Positions 6,192-42,080 of a stretch of 64,000 nt of DNA are shown one piece after another. Positions within the stretch are counted from its first letter, which is position 1. Each line of letters opens with the position of its first letter. A program made the translations under genes and the position numbers. The notes under the pieces are model-generated. The model had not been told where the DNA came from. It searched no databases and saw nothing but the letters and a program-made list of their open reading frames with translations. Origin of the DNA: a virus; the IMG/VR virus record IMGVR_UViG_3300006982_000001, positions 1 to 64,000 of that record; one strand, given 5' to 3'.

Positions 6192-6354
6192 CAGAGTGCG
6201 GAGCTGAAGTTTAGGCCCGGTGCCTGATTTCGGTAAGGAAAGCGCGTCGAGCAGGCCGATTCCGTCTCAGAGGCCCGTCTGTTTTTAAGTAGGCTATCTT
6301 CTGGATTCGTTAGCACTAACTCCCGAGTCCGAGTCTGGAGCCGATAGAGAGACA

Positions 6355-6366
6355 TAAAGATTTATA
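6355..6366 (+). promoter_or_regulatory. BRE/TATA promoter core
   Basis: TAAAGATTTATA; 38 nt to ATG 6399. Confidence 0.6.
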
Positions 6367-6398
6367 TCCAAGCGTATCCAAGAGACGAGCGCAGACCG

Positions 6399-6896
6399 AT
6401 GACCGACACAAGAACGCTCCACGTTGAACGGAGCACGAGTACGGCGCACCGACTCCACCACTACGACGGTGTCTGTGGGAACGTCCACGGGCATAATATG
6501 AAGTGGGAAGCAGAGGTCGAGGTGTCGATGGAAGAAGTGGGTGACGACAATATGCCGCTGGATCTGAAAGACGTCAGCAGTCTCATCGACGACACGGATC
6601 ACGCGATCCTTCTGAACGTCAACGACAAGCTGCTGGACGCGCTCGCTGACGAGGTTCTGCTGGATGAGTCCCAGAGCCTCGAGCAGATGCGTCAGAAGGA
6701 TCAGAGCGGCATCTACGTCGACTCAGGGCAGATCCCTCTGCTCGGAGAGGCGTACCTGTTCCACGGCGACCCCACCTGCGAGGTGATGGCTCAGTGGATG
6801 GCTGACCGGATTCAGAACATCGACGCCGTCGTGGACGTGGAGATCATCGTCTACGAGACGGACAAGTACGGGATCGAGACTTCGAGCTGGGGCTGA
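6399..6896 (+). CDS. queD: 6-carboxy-5,6,7,8-tetrahydropterin synthase (QueD, PTPS family)
   Basis: STAHRLHHYDGVCGNVHGHNMKWEAEVEV (CxxxHGH motif), T-fold-like length. Confidence 0.85.
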   Translation: MTDTRTLHVERSTSTAHRLHHYDGVCGNVHGHNMKWEAEVEVSMEEVGDDNMPLDLKDVSSLIDDTDHAILLNVNDKLLDALADEVLLDESQSLEQMRQKDQSGIYVDSGQIPLLGEAYLFHGDPTCEVMAQWMADRIQNIDAVVDVEIIVYETDKYGIETSSWG

Positions 6897-7917: not shown

Positions 7918-8686
7918 ATAACACTTAACTACACCCATCAACACTTATCGAGTATGGAGAAGACGAGTATCCAGCTTTCCAAAGAGGTCCGGGATGAGCT
8001 GAAGTCTCTGGGCCAGAAAGGAGAGTCCTACGACGATATCCTACGGAGGGAGTTAGACATCGATGAGTAGTTGTCCCGCCAGTGGTTGCGATTACAATGG
8101 CACTAATCATGGTGTGAAGGTGCATTACGGACGTTCTCATGACGGGACTCTGGCAAAGACGTCTGTATGCGAGACCTGTAGGTGTGAGTATAAGATTCGG
8201 GATGGCAAATCCATCTCAGAATCGAAGTATTGTTCTCTTCCCTGTAAGAAGGCTTCTGAGGCGGGATGCAATACGCTTCAGGGATGGGCGAGAGCACGTA
8301 CAAATCGATGTCAGTGGTGCGATGAGTGGTTTGTTGCTCCACCCGCTGCTGATAGAGAGTTCTGTTCGCGAGAATGTACCGATATCCGTAGATCGGAAGA
8401 GGACATCCTGAGCGGAGACAATCATCCCCGGTGGGTAAGTGAAGAAGCCGATCGATACTGGATGTCTCAGTCGAAGGTTGAACAGGTTGTTCAGAGGGAC
8501 AAGCAATGTCAGATGTGTGGATTAAGTAACGAGGCTCACAAGGTTATGGTAAGCAATCGATTGCACATTCATCATGTGAAACCCCGACGAAAGTGCGAGT
8601 CCAGAGAGGAGGCTAATCAGCTGTCAAACCTCCTTCTTCTGTGTAGTACGTGCCATAATAGGCTCGATAACTTCATACGACAGACA
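7897..8686 (+). mobile_element. Low-GC RHH + ZnF-HNH cassette at the queE 3' end
   Basis: GC drop; queE ends ATGV*, HNH ORF ends QTGV* immediately before PRTase ATG. Confidence 0.45.
7954..8070 (+). CDS. Ribbon-helix-helix small protein, 38 aa
   Basis: MEKTSIQLSKEVRDELKSLGQKGESYDDILRRELDIDE; overlaps HNH start by 8 nt. Confidence 0.5.
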   Translation: MEKTSIQLSKEVRDELKSLGQKGESYDDILRRELDIDE

Positions 8687-8695
8687 GGGGTCTGA
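8063..8695 (+). CDS. HNH homing endonuclease with N-terminal C2H2 zinc finger
   Basis: CPASGCDYNGTNHGVKVHYGRSH; FCSRECTD; NRLHIHHVKPRR...NLLLLCSTCHNRLD. Confidence 0.85.
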   Translation: MSSCPASGCDYNGTNHGVKVHYGRSHDGTLAKTSVCETCRCEYKIRDGKSISESKYCSLPCKKASEAGCNTLQGWARARTNRCQWCDEWFVAPPAADREFCSRECTDIRRSEEDILSGDNHPRWVSEEADRYWMSQSKVEQVVQRDKQCQMCGLSNEAHKVMVSNRLHIHHVKPRRKCESREEANQLSNLLLLCSTCHNRLDNFIRQTGV

Positions 8696-8696
8696 G

Positions 8697-9164
8697 ATGG
8701 TCGAGAAAGAATACGTCGATTGGGGTGAGGCCGAGTCGGCCGCTGTCCAGATCGCCGAGGCCGCCGAGATGATCGACGACCCGGATCATATCGTAGGAGT
8801 CGCTCGGGGTGGGCTTCCGCTGGCCGTGATGGTCAGTCACGAGCTCGACCTGCCGATGACGTCCCTACGCGCGACACACTACGATGGGAAAGAACGGGAG
8901 GACGAGGTCGAGATCCATACGGATGGACTCGATCAGATCGAGGTGGGCGAAACGGTCTTGCTGGTCGACGACGTCGTCGATAGCGGACGAACGCTCCAGC
9001 GGATCACGGAGCTGTGGGATCGCTACGAGGTAGACCATCGAACCGCTGTCTGGCACGAGAAGCCCGACAGCGAGTTCAAGCCGAACGTCTCTATCTCTCA
9101 GACGGATAGCTGGATCGTCTATCCGTGGGAAGAACCGCGCACGATGAGGAACGCAGAACGATGA
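8697..9164 (+). CDS. Type I phosphoribosyltransferase (purine PRTase-like)
   Basis: PRPP loop VLLVDDVVDSGRTL; GVARGGLPLA; size of Hpt/Gpt-like enzymes. Confidence 0.75.
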   Translation: MVEKEYVDWGEAESAAVQIAEAAEMIDDPDHIVGVARGGLPLAVMVSHELDLPMTSLRATHYDGKEREDEVEIHTDGLDQIEVGETVLLVDDVVDSGRTLQRITELWDRYEVDHRTAVWHEKPDSEFKPNVSISQTDSWIVYPWEEPRTMRNAER

Positions 9165-9796
9165 GTCAAGAACCTATGACACAAGAGCACCCGGAGCAGG
9201 ATCCAGCAGAGTACCACTTCCGTCGCTTTATGGAGGAGATCGGGGTCGACCCGGACGGCGACGAGCACCTCGAGGAGACACCGAAGCGAGTCGTCCGATC
9301 CCGTCGCAACGAGCTGTTCGGTGGGAACGGTGACGATCCGGACGAGCATCTGGAGAAGACGTTCGAAGACGTCGAGCAGTACGAGGGCGACACGGGTGAA
9401 TACAGCGGAGACGCTGGCTGGGTGATCGTCGATAACATTCAGGTGGAGTCGATGTGTGCTCACCACTTCTTGCCCTTCCGCGGAGTCGCTCACGTCGGCT
9501 ACATCCCGAAGGACAAGGTCGTGGGACTGTCGAAGCTCGCGCGGGTGACGGACGGGTACGCTCGCCGGCCGCAGGTCCAAGAGCGGCTGACGAATCAAGT
9601 CGCCAACGCCGTCCACGAGAAGCTCGATCCGCTGGCGACGGCAGTAATCATTCGGTCTGAGCACTTGTGTATGACGTGCAGGGGTGTTCAAGAGCCGAAC
9701 TCCCAGACGTCGACAGTAGCGCTTCGTGGTGCTGTAAGAGAAGACGACCCTATGCGAGAAGAGTTCTACAATATCCTTAAGATGCACGAGAGCTAA
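9161..9796 (+). CDS. folE: GTP cyclohydrolase I (FolE)
   Basis: CAHHFLPFRGVAHVGYIP, GLSKLARV, RRPQVQERLTNQ; ATGA overlap with PRTase stop; last ~50 codons are low-GC. Confidence 0.9.
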   Translation: MSQEPMTQEHPEQDPAEYHFRRFMEEIGVDPDGDEHLEETPKRVVRSRRNELFGGNGDDPDEHLEKTFEDVEQYEGDTGEYSGDAGWVIVDNIQVESMCAHHFLPFRGVAHVGYIPKDKVVGLSKLARVTDGYARRPQVQERLTNQVANAVHEKLDPLATAVIIRSEHLCMTCRGVQEPNSQTSTVALRGAVREDDPMREEFYNILKMHES

Positions 9797-10528
9797 TACT
9801 CTCGTAATGGATTGTTCGAAGTGTGGTAAAAGTGTCCAGGATAGTCAGACTCTGGACGAACATCTCGAGCTTCATTCTTCGGGTGAGGGCGTCGAGTGTC
9901 AGGAGTGTGGGTGGCTATACGGTAGCGAGCGTACTCTGAAGTGCCACCATACCAAAAAGCACGGTAAGGACCCGGAGTGGACTACTTACGAGTGTGAGGA
10001 TTGTGGTGTAGAGGTGGGTCACTACTCTGGGGCTGAGGATCGTGTGAGTCGGTTTTGTAGAAGCTGCTATCAGGAACACAGATCTGCTGATACCATCGAC
10101 GTTGAGTGTGAGACTTGTGGAGCAGTTGAGTGCGTACCAGAGTACCTGAGTAGCAGGCGGTTCTGTAGTCCTCAGTGTCGTGCTGAGTGGGTTTCAGAGG
10201 AGATAGCAGGGAGAGATCATCCCAATTGGAAAGGTGGTGAGAGCCAGTACAGAGGCTCTAATTGGAATGAACAGCGTGAGAAAGCTCTAAATCGTGATGG
10301 ACATAAATGTCGTGTCTGTAGAGACGAAGAGCAGCTTATCGTCCATCATATCGTATCGTTTCATGAGTTCGATGGATTCCGTAAGGCGAACGATCTGGAG
10401 AACCTCGCAACGCTCTGTCGATTGTGCCACGGTTATCTGGAGGGTTGGATCAATCGGGAGGATTTGGGTAGACAGGGTCAGAAGACGGCCTTTGAGTTAG
10501 CTGAAGCTGAAACTCGGAGCACCTCTGT
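9640..10528 (+). mobile_element. Homing cassette: recoded folE 3' end plus ZnF-HNH gene
   Basis: GC drop from ~9640; displaced original folE end follows at 10529. Confidence 0.6.
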
Positions 10529-10532
10529 ATGA
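9807..10532 (+). CDS. HNH homing endonuclease with N-terminal C2H2 zinc finger
   Basis: CSKCGKSVQDSQTLDEHLELH; FCSPQCRAEW; HKCRVCRDEEQLIVHHIV...NLATLCRLCH. Confidence 0.85.
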   Translation: MDCSKCGKSVQDSQTLDEHLELHSSGEGVECQECGWLYGSERTLKCHHTKKHGKDPEWTTYECEDCGVEVGHYSGAEDRVSRFCRSCYQEHRSADTIDVECETCGAVECVPEYLSSRRFCSPQCRAEWVSEEIAGRDHPNWKGGESQYRGSNWNEQREKALNRDGHKCRVCRDEEQLIVHHIVSFHEFDGFRKANDLENLATLCRLCHGYLEGWINREDLGRQGQKTAFELAEAETRSTSV

Positions 10533-10663
10533 GCTGCCGGGGTGCTCAGGAGCCTCACTCGAGTACGTCCACGGCAGCCCTGCGAGGGGCCGTCCGAGAG
10601 GACGACTCGATGAAGCGCGAGTTCTACGACCTGATCCAGATGTCCGACAACGGGCGCGTGTAG
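10529..10663 (+). pseudogene. Displaced original 3' end of folE (44 codons)
   Basis: MSCRGAQEPHSSTSTAALRGAVREDDSMKREFYDLIQMSDNGRV*; 26/41 aa identical to folE residues encoded at 9671..9796; GC-rich codons. Confidence 0.8.
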
Positions 10664-10698
10664 GGCCGCGTGTACGGACCTCAGTAGAGAGCTGAGTC

Positions 10699-10748
10699 AT
10701 CCGTCGCGCAAAGGACGGATTCGCTCACAGCGCGTGTGAGCGCTTTTT
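10699..10748 (+). terminator. Two hairpins followed by T5
   Basis: atccgtc-N8-gacggat and gctcaca-gcgcg-tgtgagc then gcttttt. Confidence 0.5.
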
Positions 10749-10784
10749 AGAGGATGGTACGTGTACGACGAGAGGGTAGAGAAC

Positions 10785-10796
10785 CATAGATTTATA
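10785..10796 (+). promoter_or_regulatory. BRE/TATA promoter core
   Basis: CATAGATTTATA; 35 nt to ATG 10826. Confidence 0.6.
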
Positions 10797-10825
10797 GACT
10801 CCGATCCTCTACTGGCAGACGTAGT

Positions 10826-11527
10826 ATGGAGACAAAGACCGACCGTCAGCGAACGATGCTCCTGTTTGGCATCGTCGCCGCGTTCGTGGTATCGCTCGCG
10901 ATCTCTCAAGTGATCGCCTCAAAGCTCGCATCGTACTCACTACCGTGGTTCGGAGTCCTGCTCTACCCGGTAGGCTCGATCACCTACGCCGTCCTCTTCT
11001 TCTGCTCGGACCTGATGTCCGAGATGTTCGGGAAAAAGCGAGCGGCCTATATGGTGAACATCGGGTTCCTGATGAACTTTCTACTGCTCGCCTTCGTCTG
11101 GGGAGCTATCTTCGTCCCGAACTCTGGGGCTGGAGCGAGTCAGGGAGCCTTCGAGGAGGTGCTGACGTCGTCGACGAACATCGTCTTCGCCTCGCTCGGA
11201 GCTTACTTGATCAGCCAGAACCTCGACGTCTTCCTGTTTCACAAGATCCGTGGGATCACCGGGAAGTCGAAGCTCTGGCTCCGGAACATCGCGTCCACGG
11301 GGACGTCGCAATTGGTCGATGCGATCGCTTTCACGTCGATCGCCTATCTACTCCTGCCCGGACTGACGGGGATTGGACAGACGGTACCGATCGAGACCGC
11401 CGTGCTGATCGTGCTCGGTCAATACTTCATCGTCCTCGGAGTCGCCTTCTTGGACACGCCGGTCGTGTACGCCGTGGTCGAGGGGCTGGAGAAGTTCACT
11501 GACCTCGAGCGAGCCGACGTCGAGTAA
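10826..11527 (+). CDS. yhhQ: YhhQ/DUF165-family queuosine-precursor (preQ0/preQ1) transporter
   Basis: Multi-TM; FFCSDLMSEMFGKKRA and ASLGAYLISQNLDVFLFHKIRG...LWLRNIASTGTSQLVDAIAFTSIAY parallel E. coli YhhQ ATDLTVRIFG / ASFMAYALGQILDVHVFNRLRQ...APTASTLFGNVSDTLAFFFIAF. Confidence 0.8.
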   Translation: METKTDRQRTMLLFGIVAAFVVSLAISQVIASKLASYSLPWFGVLLYPVGSITYAVLFFCSDLMSEMFGKKRAAYMVNIGFLMNFLLLAFVWGAIFVPNSGAGASQGAFEEVLTSSTNIVFASLGAYLISQNLDVFLFHKIRGITGKSKLWLRNIASTGTSQLVDAIAFTSIAYLLLPGLTGIGQTVPIETAVLIVLGQYFIVLGVAFLDTPVVYAVVEGLEKFTDLERADVE

Positions 11528-11543
11528 TCGGTCTACCTTCTTC

Positions 11544-11555
11544 AATAGATTTATA
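11544..11555 (+). promoter_or_regulatory. BRE/TATA promoter core
   Basis: AATAGATTTATA; 34 nt to ATG 11584. Confidence 0.6.
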
Positions 11556-11583
11556 GACTTTGATACGGTAGAGGTGAGTGCTT

Positions 11584-15249: not shown

Positions 15250-15479
15250 TGGACACCAGCGATCTGGACGTCGTCGAGCAGGCAGTCGAGGAGTCCGACG
15301 ATGTCCTCAAGGTCGGCTCAGTGGACGATGTACGCGGTGTGATCGTCTTCGTTGAGGCGGACGACAAGCAGACCGTGATCGATCTCCTCGACGATGAGGA
15401 CGCTGAGATGGCCGTCTACACGGTCGGGAGCGACACCGACGACGTCTACCGGATCGGACTCCCGATGGAGGCCATCTGA
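15246..15479 (+). CDS. Hypothetical acidic protein
   Basis: ATGA coupling. Confidence 0.5.
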   Translation: MMDTSDLDVVEQAVEESDDVLKVGSVDDVRGVIVFVEADDKQTVIDLLDDEDAEMAVYTVGSDTDDVYRIGLPMEAI

Positions 15480-16286: not shown

Positions 16287-16832
16287 ATGGTAGAAGATAC
16301 AGACATCGGACTCGGATACCGGGTCCGGGATACGATCAGCGGCTACGAAGGCATCGTCACGGACATAGGAACGCATCTGACGGGCTGTACGCGCTTCGGA
16401 GTGATGCCCGACAGTCACGAGGATCCCACTCGACGAGGCGACACAGAGTTCTTCTACGGGGCTCAGCTGGAGATCCTGAGCGAGGACACGGACTACGCCG
16501 AAGACGCAGAGGACTCGATCACGGAGGTCGACTTCGATCTGGGTGACGTGGTCGAGGACGACGTCACCGGTTTCCGAGGAGTGGCCTCGACGATCACATA
16601 CAACCTCTACAACTGCCCGCGGGTGGCCGTCCAGCCACAGGTCGGCTCAGACACGATCCTACCGGGCGGAGACAGCGAGAACGACATCGATCGTGAGTGG
16701 TTCGATACCCCGCGCGTCGTCCGCGTGAACGAGGGTGTCTCGGCCGACTACGAGACGCTCATCAACGAGGGGACGGCTGCTGAGACGGGTGCTCCGGGTA
16801 CGGACGTCAGCCGAAAGGAGGACAAACGATGA
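16287..16832 (+). CDS. Hypothetical protein with internal tandem domain duplication
   Basis: GYRVRDTISGYEGIVTDIGTHLTGCTRFGVMP vs GDVVEDDVTGFRGVASTITYNLYNCPRVAVQP. Confidence 0.55.
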   Translation: MVEDTDIGLGYRVRDTISGYEGIVTDIGTHLTGCTRFGVMPDSHEDPTRRGDTEFFYGAQLEILSEDTDYAEDAEDSITEVDFDLGDVVEDDVTGFRGVASTITYNLYNCPRVAVQPQVGSDTILPGGDSENDIDREWFDTPRVVRVNEGVSADYETLINEGTAAETGAPGTDVSRKEDKR

Positions 16833-35434: not shown

Positions 35435-35561
35435 GTGTACCGAGTGCGGTGGTCACGTCACACCGGACTTCGTGCGGGTGTTTGGAGTCGGTGGAGAAGT
35501 CCACGGATGCCCGAGCTGCACCTCGTCCACGGATCTCGAGGAGGCGATGAAGGATGGGTGA
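35427..35561 (+). CDS. Small CPxCG-type zinc-finger protein (44 aa)
   Basis: MPECTECGGHVTPDFVRVFGVGGEVHGCPSC, haloarchaeal CPxCG pattern. Confidence 0.55.
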   Translation: MPECTECGGHVTPDFVRVFGVGGEVHGCPSCTSSTDLEEAMKDG

Positions 35562-35778
35562 GGACGACGACTCGATCTCGTTCACGATGGACGTCGAGCA
35601 GTCCCACGACATCCCCGGAGAGATGGCCGACGTCCTCGAGGTGAAGACCGAGGAGTGTCGGGAGTGTGGTGAACAGATGCGAGCCACCTACGACCACGAA
35701 CCGGGCGAGCACTACTGCCCCGCGTGCGGAGTCTACAAGACTCAGAGCGGAGTCGGAACTACGGTGTTCGGACCGTGA
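35554..35778 (+). CDS. Zinc-ribbon protein
   Basis: CRECG...CPACG. Confidence 0.5.
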   Translation: MGEDDDSISFTMDVEQSHDIPGEMADVLEVKTEECRECGEQMRATYDHEPGEHYCPACGVYKTQSGVGTTVFGP

Positions 35779-36077
35779 GCGAGGACTCTGTCTGGACGAT
35801 CGGTGACGTGGATACCTGTCCCCGGTGTGGGTCTGATACGGACGAACTCGAGGAGAACTCTGATGGCTCTGTGAGCTGCCCTGAGTGCGCTGACAGCGTT
35901 CTCGTGGATCGGCGACGAGTCCGTCGGGTCGTGGACTCAATCGAATCTGAGGCGTCCTCACACGGCTCTAACTACGCCGCTGGGATGAGACGTGCTCGGA
36001 TGATCGCCGAGTCGGAGATGCTGGACATCGTGCGCGCGGAGGAGGGTCTGGCCTCGTACTCAGCCACAGAGGAATAA
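35775..36077 (+). CDS. Zinc-ribbon protein (GTG start)
   Basis: CPRCG...CPECA; GTGA overlap. Confidence 0.45.
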   Translation: MSEDSVWTIGDVDTCPRCGSDTDELEENSDGSVSCPECADSVLVDRRRVRRVVDSIESEASSHGSNYAAGMRRARMIAESEMLDIVRAEEGLASYSATEE

Positions 36078-36092
36078 CGATACCTCTGAATC

Positions 36093-36104
36093 AACAGATT
36101 TATA
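36093..36104 (+). promoter_or_regulatory. BRE/TATA promoter core
   Basis: AACAGATTTATA; 43 nt to ATG 36142. Confidence 0.65.
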
Positions 36105-36141
36105 TACATACCCGTTCTACGAGTAGATGGAGATAAGAACT

Positions 36142-37230
36142 ATGGCGAGCAACGAAGCGAACTCCACGACCGAAGCACAGAGCGCAGACAAGCAGGCCGA
36201 CCTCGAGGGCAGCGTCAAAGTCGGCGGCCAGAACATCGAGGCAGTCGCAGACGACTCCGACCGGGAGATCCTCGGATGGGTCGTTCCGTTCACGATCGGT
36301 AACGACTTCATCGTCCCCCGTAGCTGGCTGGAGACGCGCGCGAGCGACCTCGGTCTCAGCCACGCCGTCCTCCCGAGCAAGACCAGCAAGAAGCGCGCGT
36401 TCACTCGCGCCGGTGGCTTCGTCGAGGACCGGAACGTCGCCGGGATCGAGCAGGAGAACGAGAACGTCGAGATCCACCTCGAGAAGGTGAAGTACGAGTA
36501 CGAATACCGCGTCGAGGTTCACGACCGCCGTCAGGAGAACGAGTTCGACGGTGAGATGATCGCGTACATCGGCTACGACAGCGAGACGGAGTCCCTCAAT
36601 TGGAATCCGCGCATCAAGCCGGAGCACGAGATGTGGCAGGCCGCTCAGGACTACATCGGTGCGTTCCGCGACGAGTGGGACCTCCAGCAGAAGTCGAACA
36701 CGGGCCGCGACATCCGGTCGATGATCACCCGGTTCTTCACGACGCGCAGTCAGTCCGTGAAGTTCCGAGCCGGTGGCGGAGTCTACTTTGCCCCGGTGGC
36801 TGCCGAGGAGGTCGTGAAGGCGTTCGACACCCTCGTCTCCGACATCAACTCGGAGCACAAGAAGTCCGGCTTCCCGTGTGAGCTGGACACGATCGAGGTC
36901 GCCGACAGCGACGAGAAGAAGTCGATGGTCGAGGAGAAGGTCCGCCGCGACCTCGAACGTCAGGTCAGCGAACTCATCGAGGACGCGATCGACAACCTCG
37001 CCGACGAGGACACGCTGGTCGACGACCTCATCGGTGACATCGAGAACGAGCTCGACGACGTCGAAGGGTTCGCCGGTCAATACAACGCCCTACTCGACGC
37101 TGAGATGACGGTGCGAGAGTACCTCGAGGACTGGAAGACGACGACCACGGGCGAGGCAGAGGATCTGGTCGAGGAGGTCCTCGACGGGCTGGAGGACGAC
37201 GACTCCGACGACTACGACCGAGTCATCTGA
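36142..37230 (+). CDS. Hypothetical 362-aa protein
   Basis: ATGGAGATAAGAACT leader; RSQSVKFRAGGGVYFAP; acidic tail. Confidence 0.6.
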   Translation: MASNEANSTTEAQSADKQADLEGSVKVGGQNIEAVADDSDREILGWVVPFTIGNDFIVPRSWLETRASDLGLSHAVLPSKTSKKRAFTRAGGFVEDRNVAGIEQENENVEIHLEKVKYEYEYRVEVHDRRQENEFDGEMIAYIGYDSETESLNWNPRIKPEHEMWQAAQDYIGAFRDEWDLQQKSNTGRDIRSMITRFFTTRSQSVKFRAGGGVYFAPVAAEEVVKAFDTLVSDINSEHKKSGFPCELDTIEVADSDEKKSMVEEKVRRDLERQVSELIEDAIDNLADEDTLVDDLIGDIENELDDVEGFAGQYNALLDAEMTVREYLEDWKTTTTGEAEDLVEEVLDGLEDDDSDDYDRVI

Positions 37231-37292
37231 AGCCGGGAGCTCCCCGATGACCCCCTGATCACGGCGAGGGGATCTCCAGAGGTCGCACGCAT

Positions 37293-37366
37293 ACGTGGGT
37301 AGTGTAGTGGTATCACGCCGGACCTTTGCCTGTCCGGCAACGGTGGTTCGAATCCACCCCCGCGTA
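37293..37366 (+). tRNA. Orphan tRNA-like gene, Gln(UUG)-like, with 8-nt anticodon loop CUUUGCCU
   Basis: Acceptor acgtggg/cccgcgt (A1-U72), T-arm ggtgg-ttcgaat-ccacc, anticodon stem ccggac/gtccgg enclosing 8 nt. Confidence 0.6.
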
Positions 37367-37420
37367 CTCCGAGCGCTGCCGAGCGCGATGACACCGAAAT
37401 ACGTGGAGGAAAGACCAACG

Positions 37421-38341
37421 ATGTCAACCACAGAAGACGCGGCAGAAGTCGAGACCGGAGTCGAACAGATCACCGAGGACACGCTAATCCCCATCCGCAT
37501 CGGGAGCGGCCATCGAGGCGGCCTCTGCATCGGGAACGAGGAGCAGTCTCTCACCGCTAACAGCAGCTACACGCGATATCTCGTCTACGCGACGGCGGAG
37601 TCCGTCCTCCGGTGTGAATCGGTCAACAGCACCGACAGAGGCGTCCTCTCGACGCTGATGGACAGCGGACTCGAGTTCGAGACGTACACGGAGGAGGCCG
37701 ACAACCGCTTCGGGCGACCGGCTCTCCAGATTATCGTCGACGAGGGTGCCGAGGCATACGCAGAGCTCCGGGATCAGATCGACGACAACGCCTACCTGCA
37801 CGCGGCCATCAACGAGACGACCGTCTGGGACGCCGCTCAGGAGCTGGACGTCACTCCTGTCCTGCCGATCATCGACGGGGACGGCGAGATCGTGAACACC
37901 ATCGGCGGAGGGTGGGGCGATCCGGATCTGGTGTCCGGGGCGATCGAGCACGAGGGAGACGTCCTCGAGGCAGATCTCCGGGAGATCACTCCGAGTCTGG
38001 AGTTCGTCGTGGAGAATTGGTCGACCCTCAGCGGGTCGCGCTCCGGAATCGTGAACCGTCTTCGTGGGGACGACACGGATCGAGATCAGCTGCTGGCGAT
38101 GGCTCGGGACGACCCGGATGCACAGACCGCGCAGTTCATCGTTAACTCGAGCGACGACGATATCACTGCTCACGGTGTCCGGGAGATCGAGGAGGCTGTC
38201 GTGGCAGACGAGGAGGATCGCTACAAGTCGTTCTGCGGAATGGTGAAGAAGCGGAAGTCGAAGGCGACTGTCCTCGAGCTGGAGATGGACTCCGTCGCTG
38301 ACCGTCTCCTCTGCTCCCTCTGCGCGAAGTCGATGGACTGA
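37421..38341 (+). CDS. Hypothetical 306-aa protein
   Basis: Leader-like GTGGAGGAAAGACCAACG before ATG 37421. Confidence 0.6.
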   Translation: MSTTEDAAEVETGVEQITEDTLIPIRIGSGHRGGLCIGNEEQSLTANSSYTRYLVYATAESVLRCESVNSTDRGVLSTLMDSGLEFETYTEEADNRFGRPALQIIVDEGAEAYAELRDQIDDNAYLHAAINETTVWDAAQELDVTPVLPIIDGDGEIVNTIGGGWGDPDLVSGAIEHEGDVLEADLREITPSLEFVVENWSTLSGSRSGIVNRLRGDDTDRDQLLAMARDDPDAQTAQFIVNSSDDDITAHGVREIEEAVVADEEDRYKSFCGMVKKRKSKATVLELEMDSVADRLLCSLCAKSMD

Positions 38342-38512
38342 CGATGAGATCCGACTCAACGACAATCCGATCGTACTGCAGGATCGCCTGATCAAAGCCT
38401 ACGACGAGGGCACGGTCTTCGTCACTGAGGACGGTCAGGAGATCATCCTCGATGGATCGAACTCCGGGAACTCGACCAGCTCAGGGGTGCCGGACTCGCC
38501 GGGTGGTAACTG

Positions 38513-38776
38513 ATGACGTCCGGTGACGATCACGAGGGTCTGGACCGTCGGAAGTTCCTCGCAGCTGCCGGTGCCACCGGAGCAGTCGCTCTGGCTGGCT
38601 GTGCAGCGGAGGAGGACGGGTCTGACGGGAACGCGACGGATGGGTCGGGTGAGGGCACGAACGCTCTCACGCCGCCCTCAGCGCCGTCTGTCCCGGACGA
38701 CGAGTATTGGGCCTTCGTCGTGGAGTCTCTCGAGTACCAGAACGCGGTTCTGGAGGAGCTGCACGATGGTAGCTAA
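38513..38776 (+). CDS. Tat-signal lipoprotein
   Basis: DRRKFLAAAGATGAVALAGC (twin-Arg + lipobox). Confidence 0.65.
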   Translation: MTSGDDHEGLDRRKFLAAAGATGAVALAGCAAEEDGSDGNATDGSGEGTNALTPPSAPSVPDDEYWAFVVESLEYQNAVLEELHDGS

Positions 38777-38969
38777 ACTCGTCTTCGGTCTGCTGGCCGT
38801 GGCCTTCGTGCTCTCGGTGGCAGTGATCGCCGCGTATCGGTACTTCGACAATCAGGCGGATCGACGTCACGAGAAGGAGATGGTGCGCGAGGAGCACCGT
38901 CACGAGGAGATGTCGGATATCACGACCGACCCGATCGATCGGGAGCTCGAGCGCGAGCGAGAGAAGTAG
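38766..38969 (+). CDS. Small single-TM protein
   Basis: LVFGLLAVAFVLSVAVIAAY then charged tail. Confidence 0.5.
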   Translation: MVAKLVFGLLAVAFVLSVAVIAAYRYFDNQADRRHEKEMVREEHRHEEMSDITTDPIDRELEREREK

Positions 38970-38985
38970 GTCAACTCCGACCATC

Positions 38986-38997
38986 AAGATTTTTATA
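38986..38997 (+). promoter_or_regulatory. TATA promoter of tRNA operon 1
   Basis: AAGATTTTTATA; ~168 nt before first tRNA. Confidence 0.5.
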
Positions 38998-39159
38998 CCC
39001 CCACCTCGTTAGTGGGTAGTAGAACGATGCTGACACGGACACTCACTCGGGGCAGGTTCGGCCCGATAGTTGGGTGTCCAATTAGAGTCCATCCTCAGGG
39101 ATGGCCTCAACACCTCTTTTAGATCCGCTGAAAAGGCGGGTCTGTTCGCTTCACATCGC

Positions 39160-39245
39160 TCCGGCGTAGCATAGTCAGGGGCACATCGCCATAATGCACC
39201 TCCCTCGTAAGGAGGAGAACGGGGGTTCGATTCCCTCCGCCGGAT
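39160..39245 (+). tRNA. tRNA-Thr: tRNA-Thr(CGT) with 21-nt D-loop
   Basis: Acceptor tccggcg/cgccgga; anticodon arm cctcc-ctCGTaa-ggagg; T-arm ggggg-ttcgatt-ccctc; D-stem gcat/atgc encloses 21 nt. Confidence 0.7.
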
Positions 39246-39405: not shown

Positions 39406-39481
39406 ACTCCCGGAGTCCCCGCTGGCGAGGGACGCTGGACTTTGGATCCAGAGATCGCCGGTTCGATTCCGGCCGGGAGGA
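39406..39481 (+). tRNA. tRNA-Gln: tRNA-Gln(TTG)
   Basis: ctgga-ctTTGga-tccag; gccgg-ttcgatt-ccggc; A1 opposite G72. Confidence 0.8.
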
Positions 39482-39484
39482 TGA

Positions 39485-39559
39485 ACGGGGGTAGCGCAGT
39501 CCGGTCGACGCACTCGGCCGATAACCGAGGTGAGGCAGGTTCGAATCCTGTCCCCCGTA
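39485..39559 (+). tRNA. tRNA-Ile: tRNA-Ile(GAT), C at position 33
   Basis: acggggg/cccccgt; ctcgg-ccGATaa-ccgag; gcagg-ttcgaat-cctgt. Confidence 0.8.
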
Positions 39560-40870: not shown

Positions 40871-40944
40871 GGGCTCGTAGTTCAGCTCGGTAGAACCCCC
40901 GCTTCGCAAGTGGGAGGCCGCCGGTTCAAGTCCGGCCGAGTCCA
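40871..40944 (+). tRNA. tRNA-Ala: tRNA-Ala(CGC)
   Basis: gggctcg/cgagtcc with G3-U70; cccgc-ttCGCaa-gtggg; gccgg-ttcaagt-ccggc. Confidence 0.9.
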
Positions 40945-40955
40945 TCGCTCATCGC

Positions 40956-41034
40956 GGGCAGGTAGCAAAGGCGATGCGCAGCCTGCACCGGGCCTTTAAC
41001 CCGGCTATCGTGGGTTCAATTCCCACCCTGCCCT
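40956..41034 (+). tRNA. tRNA-Lys: tRNA-Lys(TTT), enlarged D-loop, C33
   Basis: gggcagg/cctgccc; ccggg-ccTTTaa-cccgg; gtggg-ttcaatt-cccac; 79 nt. Confidence 0.7.
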
Positions 41035-41042
41035 CTCAGCGA

Positions 41043-41129
41043 GCTCCCGTGGGGTAGCGGACACACGCTCTCAGGCAATCCTACCGGCCTTTCGAGCCGG
41101 TGACGTCGGTTCGACTCCGACCGGGAGCA
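41043..41129 (+). tRNA. tRNA-Glu: tRNA-Glu(TTC) with 22-nt D-loop
   Basis: gctcccg/cgggagc; ccggc-ctTTCga-gccgg; gtcgg-ttcgact-ccgac; D-stem gggt/atcc encloses 22 nt; 87 nt. Confidence 0.7.
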
Positions 41130-41978: not shown

Positions 41979-42080
41979 GCGGGCGTGGCAGAGCTTGGCC
42001 GAACGCGTCTGGCTTAAGACCAGATGAGTGTAGGCTCAACGGGGCAACCCATTACGTAGGTTCGAATCCTACCGCCCGCA
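41979..42080 (+). tRNA. tRNA-Leu: tRNA-Leu(TAA), 102 nt with ~31-nt variable region
   Basis: gcgggcg/cgcccgc; tctgg-ctTAAga-ccaga; gtagg-ttcgaat-cctac; variable region includes ggg-gcaa-ccc hairpin. Confidence 0.65.

Follow-up and report, generated by a model that had tools for sequence, protein, structure and literature searches.

A tRNA-like gene of glycine-type ancestry with an enlarged anticodon loop in a haloarchaeal tailed virus

Introduction

To our knowledge, natural and selectively maintained tRNAs with an enlarged anticodon loop are very rare, and the known ones are mostly laboratory frameshift suppressors or mitochondrial oddities. In the suppressor SufJ, a base (C31.5) is inserted beside the anticodon stem and the codon is still bound as a triplet in the A site (PMC4238358). 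The yeast mitochondrial tRNA-Thr(UAG) has a natural 8-nucleotide (nt) loop and also reads triplets (PMC7609411). Loop changes have been discussed in a different setting as well: phage tRNAs are proposed to evade anticodon nucleases by loop mutations (PMC10264068). Here we analyse a 74-nt tRNA-like gene located at positions 37293-37366 (+ strand) of a 64,000-nt stretch of viral DNA (IMG/VR record IMGVR_UViG_3300006982_000001, positions 1 to 64,000), which we call the window. An earlier note on this DNA had described the gene as resembling tRNA-Gln(UUG) with an 8-nt anticodon loop, and had raised the possibilities of a +1 frameshift suppressor, a decoy or a pseudogene. We show, with high confidence, that the gene is a viral descendant of haloarchaeal tRNA-Gly(GCC) and not a tRNA-Gln. 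As judged from its orthologs, it is under purifying selection that includes the anticodon helix, while the loop itself is remodelled; what this loop is for can be argued in several ways, which we weigh below.

Results

A complete tRNA body with a non-canonical anticodon arm

The gene encodes no CCA end and reads ACGUGGG UA GUGU AGUGGUA UCAC G CCGGAC CUUUGCCU GUCCGG C AAC GGUGG UUCGAAU CCACC CCCGCGU A. It is recovered by ARAGORN, by the Rfam tRNA model RF00005 and by a cloverleaf fold, and has orthologs in related contigs (L001-L005). The 8-nt loop and the details of acceptor stem, D-arm, T-arm and variable loop given in the earlier note are all correct. The 5' strand of the acceptor stem (ACGUGGG, 37293-37299) pairs with 37359-37365 (CCCGCGU), the pairs including A1-U72, C2-G71, G3-C70 and U4.G69, and A73 stands at 37366. 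The last acceptor base, positions 8-9 and the D-arm together make up an 18-nt stretch, GUAGUGUAGUGGUAUCAC (37299-37316), which is identical in haloarchaeal tRNA-Gly(GCC). The anticodon helix, formed by G26 and CCGGAC (37317-37323) with GUCCGG and C44 (37332-37338), counts 6 base pairs (bp) plus the 26:44 pair and encloses the 8-nt loop CUUUGCCU (37324-37331). The remainder of the variable loop (AAC, or CAAC with C44) and the T-arm GGUGG-UUCGAAU-CCACC follow at 37339-37358.

Rfam scores the gene at 55.7 bits (gathering score 29; E = 2.7e-9 for the whole window) and covers the full model, positions 1-71, leaving 8 loop residues unaligned instead of 5. RNAfold gives, at -33.6 kcal/mol, a minimum free energy cloverleaf whose anticodon helix has 7 bp (G26-C44 plus CCGGAC/GUCCGG); the z score is -3.3 and equally good folds are seen in 0 of 200 shuffles. 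The nucleotides of the elbow and of tertiary contacts are in place (U8, A14, G18G19 and T54-Psi55-C56 with A58, in a D-loop AGUGGUA and a T-loop UUCGAAU), and the elbow nucleotides are unchanged across orthologs.

The anticodon arm departs from the canonical pattern of a 5-bp stem and a 7-nt loop with U33 and a purine at position 37. It exceeds 5 bp plus 7 nt by 3 nt: a C:G pair is added where the stem meets the loop, and the loop has one base more. The bases U-GCC at 37327-37330, corresponding to U33-G34-C35-C36 of tRNA-Gly(GCC), are kept, with 2-3 extra nt on their 5' side, and a pyrimidine occupies position 37 in every reading register, as had been remarked before. ARAGORN calls the gene 'tRNA-??? 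anticodon (ttgc)' or, with the structure drawn, 'tRNA-?(Gln|Ala)(ttgc)'.

An intron or mini-intron was considered and rejected: there is no bulge-helix-bulge, ARAGORN proposes none with introns enabled, there are no more than 2-3 surplus nt, and no bulge interrupts the helix. The same intron-enabled search detects introns of 12, 20 and 23 nt in neighbouring or related tRNAs. A remnant of integration (attP) is also unlikely, given that the tRNA is full-length, is identical to no host tRNA and has no integrase adjacent.

The body descends from haloarchaeal tRNA-Gly(GCC)

The ancestry of the gene can be read from its body. The 18-mer GTAGTGTAGTGGTATCAC (gene positions 7-24) has exact matches at at least 120 cellular haloarchaeal genome loci, and 132 of the 134 ARAGORN tRNAs that carry it are Gly(GCC), all with a CAAC variable loop. 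The host consensus is GCGCUGG UA GUGU AGUGGUA UCAC G UGACC UUGCCAU GGUCA C AAC CUGGG UUCAAAU CCCAG CCAGCGC A. When the 74 nt are compared by blastn with all phage records, only tRNA-Gly genes of hafunaviruses are returned (81-83% identity over positions 7-63, the subject matches being 3 nt shorter than the query); the plasmid collection gave no match to the gene.

The identity set of the archaeal/eukaryal-type glycyl-tRNA synthetase (GlyRS) reportedly consists, in the compilation of Giege et al., of C2:G71, G3:C70, A73, C35 and C36. The first three of these elements are present in the gene and invariant in its orthologs, and the GCC bases are present but displaced within the enlarged loop. The 26:44 pair is G-C or A-U in host tRNA-Gly(GCC), the same Watson-Crick covariation as in the viral orthologs. 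What the gene does not share with its parent is G1:C72 and a 7-nt loop of the form YUGCCAN with the anticodon at 34-36: more than 130 host tRNA-Gly(GCC) genes always have YUGCCAN loops, whereas the viral gene has A1:U72 and CUUUGCCU or, in one ortholog, UAUGCCC.

Could the gene be an ordinary isoacceptor of another amino acid, tRNA-Gln(UUG) if the anticodon is taken from the 5' part of the loop, or else tRNA-Ala(UGC)? The loop does start C-U-UUG in the window and in L001, ARAGORN labels the gene 'Gln|Ala' and the L004 ortholog 'Ala(tgc)', and A1-U72 and A73 occur in archaeal tRNA-Gln. We nevertheless consider such an identity extremely unlikely. UUG is confined to the window and L001, the loop of L004 (UAUGCCC) having neither it nor the CUUUG start, and pyrimidines follow the putative UUG anticodon. 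The body matches tRNA-Gly best, and in the alignment with viral tRNAs the tRNA-Gln lies outside the 25 best-scoring ones; a separate, canonical tRNA-Gln(UUG) already exists at 39406, as the earlier note had itself recorded, and its proposed resemblance to tRNA-Gln is thus not borne out. Nor is A1-U72 diagnostic of glutamine, since the viral tRNA-Ile has it too. For alanine, the G3:U70 wobble is the universal determinant of the alanyl-tRNA synthetase (AlaRS): all orthologs have G3:C70, whereas the viral tRNA-Ala(CGC) at 40871 does have G3:U70. Lacking this wobble, the gene falls outside the substrates of AlaRS under the universal rule.

Searches beyond the family gave little. Exact patterns for the anticodon arm, for D-arm and T-arm with a variable gap, and for D-arm with the 5' strand of the anticodon stem had 0 matches in viral, metagenome and genome contigs; a T-arm pattern had 28 matches in viral contigs, all of them unrelated tRNAs. 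A protein-pattern scan of viral contigs found nothing, and a megablast of positions 36000-39000 against public phage records found no close relative. There is no paralog in viral tRNA arrays, where the best alignment score outside the family is 18 versus 55-62 for the orthologs.

Purifying selection includes the anticodon helix

Relatives were found through homologs of the upstream DUF6744 protein and of the downstream protein, and their contigs were then compared. This yields three distinct orthologs: that of the window, that of L001-L003 (89% protein identity; runs SRR24908265, SRR24908266 and SRR24908267) and that of L004/L005 (81% identity). Conservation of the 8-nt loop holds for part of this set: it is identical in L001-L003, while L004/L005 have a 7-nt loop, UAUGCCC, on the same 6-bp stem. 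Recurrence of the loop in three independent assemblies of the 89% relative shows that its length is genuine and not an assembly error. All three orthologs share U-GCC and have it equally far from the 3' strand of the stem; only the 5' flank and position 37 vary. The variable loop reads CAAC in the window, UGAC in L001 and UAAC in L004.

Three sequences are too few to give a covariation shuffle test any power (the observed value is reached in 64 of 500 shuffles), and we therefore compared the gene with neutral sites. Outside the loop, the tRNA body differs at 6 of 66 positions between the window and L004, at 6 of 66 between the window and L001 and at 4 of 66 between L001 and L004; at four-fold degenerate sites of the adjacent DUF6744 gene the corresponding differences are 52%, 29% and 46%. 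The body thus diverges by 6-9%, where neutral sites diverge by 29-52%. None of the 22 base pairs is broken in any of the three orthologs and each of the 6 stem substitutions keeps pairing, through compensatory changes at 5:68 and 26:44 (G-C to A-U) and wobble changes at 4:69 (wobble to Watson-Crick) and 29:41 (G-C to G.U). The D-arm and T-arm are invariant, next to an upstream flank that cannot be aligned. By these measures the gene is evidently under purifying selection, and this selection includes the anticodon helix and not the acceptor/T domain alone. For the loop itself the signals are weak: its changes spare U-GCC, and it is identical between the window and L001 despite 29% neutral divergence (p of about 0.07 for each, by our own estimate).

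This pattern also bears on the idea of a decaying pseudogene, in which a captured copy of tRNA-Gly(GCC) would have acquired loop mutations and be drifting to loss in a permissive location. The loop is indeed aberrant when set against the more than 130 host tRNA-Gly(GCC) genes, and the location does turn over among relatives (see below), one lineage having an internally deleted tRNA-like remnant. Pseudogenes also have a precedent: in a re-analysis of the haloarchaeal virus HGTV-1, the 34 tRNA genes include 3 putative pseudogenes and 2 tRNAs of undetermined type (PMC13532342). Yet a freely decaying pseudogene is excluded because the tRNA body diverges far less than neutral sites, evolving 3-8 times more slowly. 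That all six stem substitutions preserve pairing, and that both the D-arm and T-arm are invariant beside an unalignable flank, argues in the same direction, as does the 87% identity of the gene between the window and L004, which only 2 of 11 functional array tRNA pairs match or exceed. Decay is thus disfavoured, and we hold it to be improbable.

The position downstream of DUF6744 has changing occupants

The gene is an orphan outside the tRNA arrays, between open reading frames (ORFs) at 36127/36142-37230, encoding the DUF6744 protein, and at 37421-38341, as the earlier note had it. The slot between these ORFs holds different elements in different relatives. In L006 (84% identity), an intron-bearing tRNA-Leu(GAG) (intron of 23 nt; 2104-2210) stands exactly in place of the Gly-like gene, with the same flanks. 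L019 (57% identity) has a 49-nt mini-tRNA (6643-6691) made of a perfect acceptor stem, a short hairpin and a T-arm, and lacking an anticodon arm; among Rfam models it matches mascRNA best, with 32.1 bits, under the gathering score of 42.5. L012 and L018 have hairpins only, and the slot is empty in L007, L009, L010, L013 and L015. Because its occupants range from a Gly-like gene to a tRNA-Leu, a mini-tRNA, hairpins and nothing, the slot is a recent, dynamic landing place for tRNA genes.

The 3' spacer that separates the gene from the downstream ORF (37367-37420) is conserved and contains a hairpin read by eye, GCGCU-GCCG-AGCGC (37373-37386). The same spacer follows the slot tRNA in L004, L006 and L019 despite the different occupants, the hairpin having the general form GCGCU-NNNN-AGCGC. 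On the other side, the interval from the DUF6744 stop codon to the tRNA contains, as read by eye, an inverted repeat that is 10 bp long and imperfect (GGAGCUCCCC ... GGGGAUCUCC, 37236-37277); its 3' arm is kept in L001.

The diversity of occupants brings in a second reading, that of a non-decoding tRNA mimic kept for its shape. It could serve as a processing or punctuation signal, with RNase P and tRNase Z cutting the DUF6744-tRNA-ORF transcript at the tRNA, like mascRNA at the 3' end of MALAT1. Alternatively, a host factor that recognises tRNA-Gly (GlyRS, a modification enzyme or an anticodon nuclease, for instance) could bind to it as to a decoy. The intron-bearing tRNA-Leu(GAG) of L006 and the acceptor/T-arm mini-tRNA of L019, the latter with mascRNA as best match, are what a shape-dependent role would allow, and both elements are followed by the conserved spacer hairpin. 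A role within a longer transcript would also fit the surroundings of the gene, where we see by eye no AT-rich TATA-like box upstream and no T-tract on either side. Moreover, no part of the gene is less conserved than the loop, and with a pyrimidine at 37 and 2-3 extra nt its geometry is ill suited to decoding.

The conservation and covariation of the anticodon stem and the retention of U-GCC speak against such a mimic, as recognition by RNase P and tRNase Z needs neither. In the five relatives with an empty slot, processing at this point is dispensable because there is nothing in the slot to be processed. The mascRNA match concerns a single sequence and is below its gathering score, and the decoy version has no known host factor. 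We therefore regard the mimic as possible, and worth keeping in view, but doubtful. An antisense target for the loop was also considered and dropped, as complements of the loop occur at chance frequency in the window and in L004.

Frameshifting is very unlikely

The 8-nt loop had suggested a link to several apparent +1 frame discontinuities in the window. In that scenario the gene would be a +1 frameshift suppressor or quadruplet-decoding tRNA, reading GCAA, CAAA or GGCA, or shifting by +1 after GGC, to the benefit of a viral gene with a change of frame. Several properties agree with it: the enlarged loop, a hallmark of such suppressors, is real and kept in L001-L003, the gene derives from a glycine tRNA just like the classical sufD, and the insertion adjoins the 5' strand of the stem, which recalls SufJ (PMC4238358). 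The other hallmark, a cognate gene that needs a +1 shift, was not found, and the 7-nt loop of L004 means that a conserved function cannot depend on 8 nt.

The supposed discontinuities have an ordinary explanation. In nine of the ten +1 junctions examined on the + strand, the downstream gene has a start codon that precedes the upstream stop by 8 or 11 nt; for the tenth (37259-38341 then 38247-38513) no candidate start is listed. Since downstream starts overlap upstream stops, all nine junctions with candidate starts are simple gene overlaps. When the ORFs of all relatives were compared with the window by tblastn, over about 8 kb on either side of the tRNA, no split gene was found; beyond this region the check consists of ORF structure only. 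The sole apparent split is a 248-nt insertion with an extra zinc-ribbon gene, and the large structural and replication genes are intact in the window.

Codon usage points the same way. GGCA, GCAA and CAAA occur in frame 38, 12 and 10 times, respectively, in 12.6 thousand codons; they are avoided no more than the control quadruplets GGTA and GGAA, and the controls have the same codon-boundary bias. With the candidate quadruplets this frequent in frame, efficient four-base reading would damage viral proteins. Moreover, a GCC anticodon that has slipped by +1 on GGC-N cannot re-pair. We thus find it very unlikely that the gene is a suppressor serving a frame-changing viral gene. The broader version, a selected expanded-loop tRNA-Gly that alters the frame by four-base reading of GGC-N or GCA-A or by +1 slips after GGC, strikes us as equally hard to credit, whether the tRNA would be used for a recoding gene beyond the compared region or to corrupt host translation. 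If true, a natural tRNA that promotes frameshifts would be on record from an archaeal virus for the first time.

Two further candidates were set aside. Stop-codon readthrough at adjacent ORFs in the same frame is not needed, as these have their own starts 7-67 nt downstream (ATG in 6 of 8) and their stop codons are mixed. A second gene with a '4-nt anticodon' (ccta; window 41043-41129), which might have been a sign of systematic quadruplet decoding, turned out to be a tRNA-Glu(UUC) with a 12-nt intron once introns were allowed in ARAGORN.

Overlaps of 8 or 11 nt recur along the window (11954/11961, 15675/15682, 20410/20420, 23874/23881, 24620/24627, 34953/34963, 43685/43692 and 63166/63173), and with their +1 offset these start/stop arrangements look like translational coupling. 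The 248-nt insertion, defined relative to L001 (window 35520-35769), contains a small zinc-ribbon ORF (35554-35778; CxxC...CxxC) and lies between two conserved small genes, one of which is a DUF7563 zinc-ribbon.

Unusual anticodon loops and introns in the virus group

The window belongs to a haloarchaeal tailed virus, with acidic proteins and nearly all genes on the + strand. It encodes a family B DNA polymerase, an RFC-like ATPase, QueD, GTP cyclohydrolase I, ThyX and a dCTP deaminase, together with about 25 tRNA genes (ARAGORN, Rfam). The upstream DUF6744 protein has only distant homologs (26-27% identity), in HCTV-1, HCTV-5 and HCTV-16. These viruses are placed in Druskaviridae, and the preQ0 pathway is present in all viruses of this family (Liu et al., PMC8651126). 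In the window, a QueD-like (PTPS) ORF (6348-6896), a phosphoribosyltransferase (8580-9164) and GTP cyclohydrolase I (9110-9796) are close together, which suggests a preQ0/archaeosine-type DNA modification pathway as in Druskaviridae. The adjoining stretch 9796-11578 contains no acidic ORF.

The gene at 37293 is not alone in having an odd anticodon loop. Among 82 ARAGORN tRNA calls from the window and its relatives, several genes that are normal in other respects have non-canonical loops: C33 is found in tRNA-Ile(GAU), with the loop CCGAUAA (window 39485-39559; L018 12702-12782), and in tRNA-Arg(UCU) (L004 11940-12016; L007 12715-12788), while L009 has A33 in tRNA-Cys and C37 in tRNA-Asp (16583-16656 and 15376-15450). 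By comparison, loops are canonical in 150 of the 151 tRNAs of the host loci that we fetched, most of them Gly(GCC). Because several viral tRNAs are non-canonical against this host background, odd anticodon loops are a trait of the virus group, of which the 37293 gene is the extreme case, and pressure on anticodon loops may act across the whole group.

Other tRNA genes of the group are also unusual. In the tRNA-Glu(UUC) at 41043-41129, the insertion, AAUCCUACCGGC, has a non-canonical position just 5' of the anticodon loop, and its last five bases (CCGGC) are able to pair with the 3' strand of the anticodon stem. The tRNA-Leu(UAA) at 41979-42080 has a 20-nt intron; short introns at unusual positions seem to be common in the virus group. 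An 86-nt tRNA match at 39160-39245 is seen by Rfam only and cannot be folded by ARAGORN even with introns, and an 80-nt gene at 40956-41035, called Val(cac) by ARAGORN, has a poor anticodon stem. L008 contains a 206-nt Rfam tRNA match (2736-2941). According to ARAGORN, the acceptor stem of the canonical viral tRNA-Gln(UUG) (39406-39481) opens with a mismatch, A1.G72, and the Rfam alignment of this tRNA covers only positions 2-69 of the model.

Discussion

The gene at 37293-37366 can be traced to a host tRNA-Gly(GCC), and the question becomes what a virus would do with such a tRNA once its loop has been remodelled. We tentatively favour, at a confidence that falls short of even, that it still accepts glycine and works by means of its anticodon arm; most likely it would read GGY codons as triplets, and its loop would escape recognition by the loop-directed enzymes of the host. 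The path that we infer, from expression and processing to glycylation, decoding and nuclease evasion, would be as follows. The gene would probably be transcribed together with its co-directional flanking genes, since there is no recognisable promoter or terminator around it. RNase P and tRNase Z would excise the tRNA, after which CCA would be added. Glycylation by the host GlyRS is probable because C2:G71, G3:C70, A73 and C35/C36 are kept. The mature RNA would then act by its anticodon arm as a glycine-type tRNA, with a loop unlike the host-invariant YUGCCAN, and its likeliest role would be the triplet reading of GGC and GGU. These two codons are 52% of glycine codons in the viral ORFs and a GCC reader would fill a gap, as the viral array supplies only Gly(UCC). 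The altered flanks of the loop would in turn change how the tRNA is seen by host enzymes directed at the loop, nucleases or modification enzymes for example.

A number of observations weigh against a glycine-type decoder. The 1:72 pair is A-U in the gene and G-C in host tRNA-Gly. Between the window and L004 the loop has undergone 2 substitutions and 1 indel; it changes faster than the body, and its length differs between orthologs (8 nt versus 7 nt). The 11 array tRNAs that are orthologous between the window and L004 show the reverse: their loops have 0-1 change while the whole tRNAs are 72-99% identical, and the anticodon is kept in every pair. The statistics of loop constraint are weak with only three distinct orthologs. 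The slot holds a tRNA-Leu in L006 and a mini-tRNA without anticodon arm in L019, which fits a role that is independent of the anticodon. Finally, we know of no natural tRNA that decodes efficiently with 2-3 extra bases 5' of U33 and a pyrimidine at position 37.

Whichever function prevails, the locus provides an archaeal virus gene with a clear host tRNA-Gly(GCC) ancestry, in which purifying selection is measurable everywhere but in the loop flanks. It is also a concrete substrate, one 74-nt RNA with two natural loop variants and a known parent, well suited to asking how much loop expansion the archaeal ribosome and GlyRS tolerate. Should the RNA prove non-decoding, archaea would offer a case of tRNA mimicry by a virus. 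Taken jointly, these features point to an unusual pressure on the anticodon loops of tRNAs in haloarchaeal viruses. For bacteria, a conflict of phage tRNAs with anticodon nucleases has been proposed, and this may be its counterpart in archaea. We know of no archaeal anticodon nuclease that has been linked to the present gene.

How does the gene compare with described systems? With tRNA-like processing elements such as mascRNA it would share a tRNA shape within a longer transcript and an anticodon region that is not used for decoding. Gammaherpesvirus tRNA-like RNAs are likewise tRNA-shaped RNAs in longer transcripts whose anticodon region does not decode. The likeness to mascRNA is one of shape only, without homology: the sub-threshold match concerns the element of L019, whereas the gene of the window keeps a full, covarying anticodon arm. 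Phage tRNAs proposed to evade nucleases also differ from host tRNAs specifically in the anticodon loop while the anticodon is kept; however, the published cases have substitutions in 7-nt loops and belong to bacterial phages, whereas the viral gene has insertions and an archaeal host (PMC10264068).

The classical frameshift suppressors, sufD (tRNA-Gly, CCCC) and SufJ (tRNA-Thr, C31.5), share the 8-nt loop with the viral gene, and sufD also shares the glycine tRNA parent. In SufJ the inserted base adjoins the 5' strand of the stem, as in the viral gene, and pairs with position 38 (PMC4238358). However, both are laboratory suppressor mutations that add one base and have a frameshifted gene to match. 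The viral gene differs from them in that (i), it is natural and selected; (ii), it has 2-3 extra bases, a pyrimidine at 37 and a loop whose length differs in an ortholog; and (iii), no frameshifted target was found for it, by homology over about 8 kb on either side or at the junctions. A 6-bp anticodon stem and a short variable region are shared with tRNA-Pyl and mitochondrial tRNA-Ser(UCN) (PMC7609411), from which the gene differs by its two linker bases, G18G19 and UUCGAAU, all kept, and by having no CUA anticodon. The yeast mitochondrial tRNA-Thr(UAG) offers the parallel of a naturally kept 8-nt loop and of descent from a tRNA of another specificity (PMC7609411). In that case there is a dedicated synthetase and a reassigned codon family, whereas no reassignment is evident for the viral gene.

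Comparisons can also be drawn with other tRNA-Gly genes. In the hafunavirus tRNA-Gly(UCC) (HRTV-10, HRTV-8 and others), the D-arm and variable loop are identical to those of the gene, C2:G71, G3:C70 and A73 recur and the tRNA also stands alone amid protein genes, but the anticodon arm is canonical (GCGGC-CUUCCAA-GCCGC), the anticodon is UCC, the first pair is G1:C72 and the virus family is another one. The cellular haloarchaeal tRNA-Gly(GCC) has in common with the viral gene the stretch GUAGUGUAGUGGUAUCAC, a Watson-Crick pair at 26:44, CAAC, C2:G71, G3:C70, A73 and U33-GCC. The host tRNA is 71 nt long, with a 5-bp anticodon stem, a 7-nt YUGCCAN loop and G1:C72; the viral gene has added to this plan one C:G pair and 2-3 bases 5' of U33, and has a pyrimidine at 37, A1:U72 and another T-stem.

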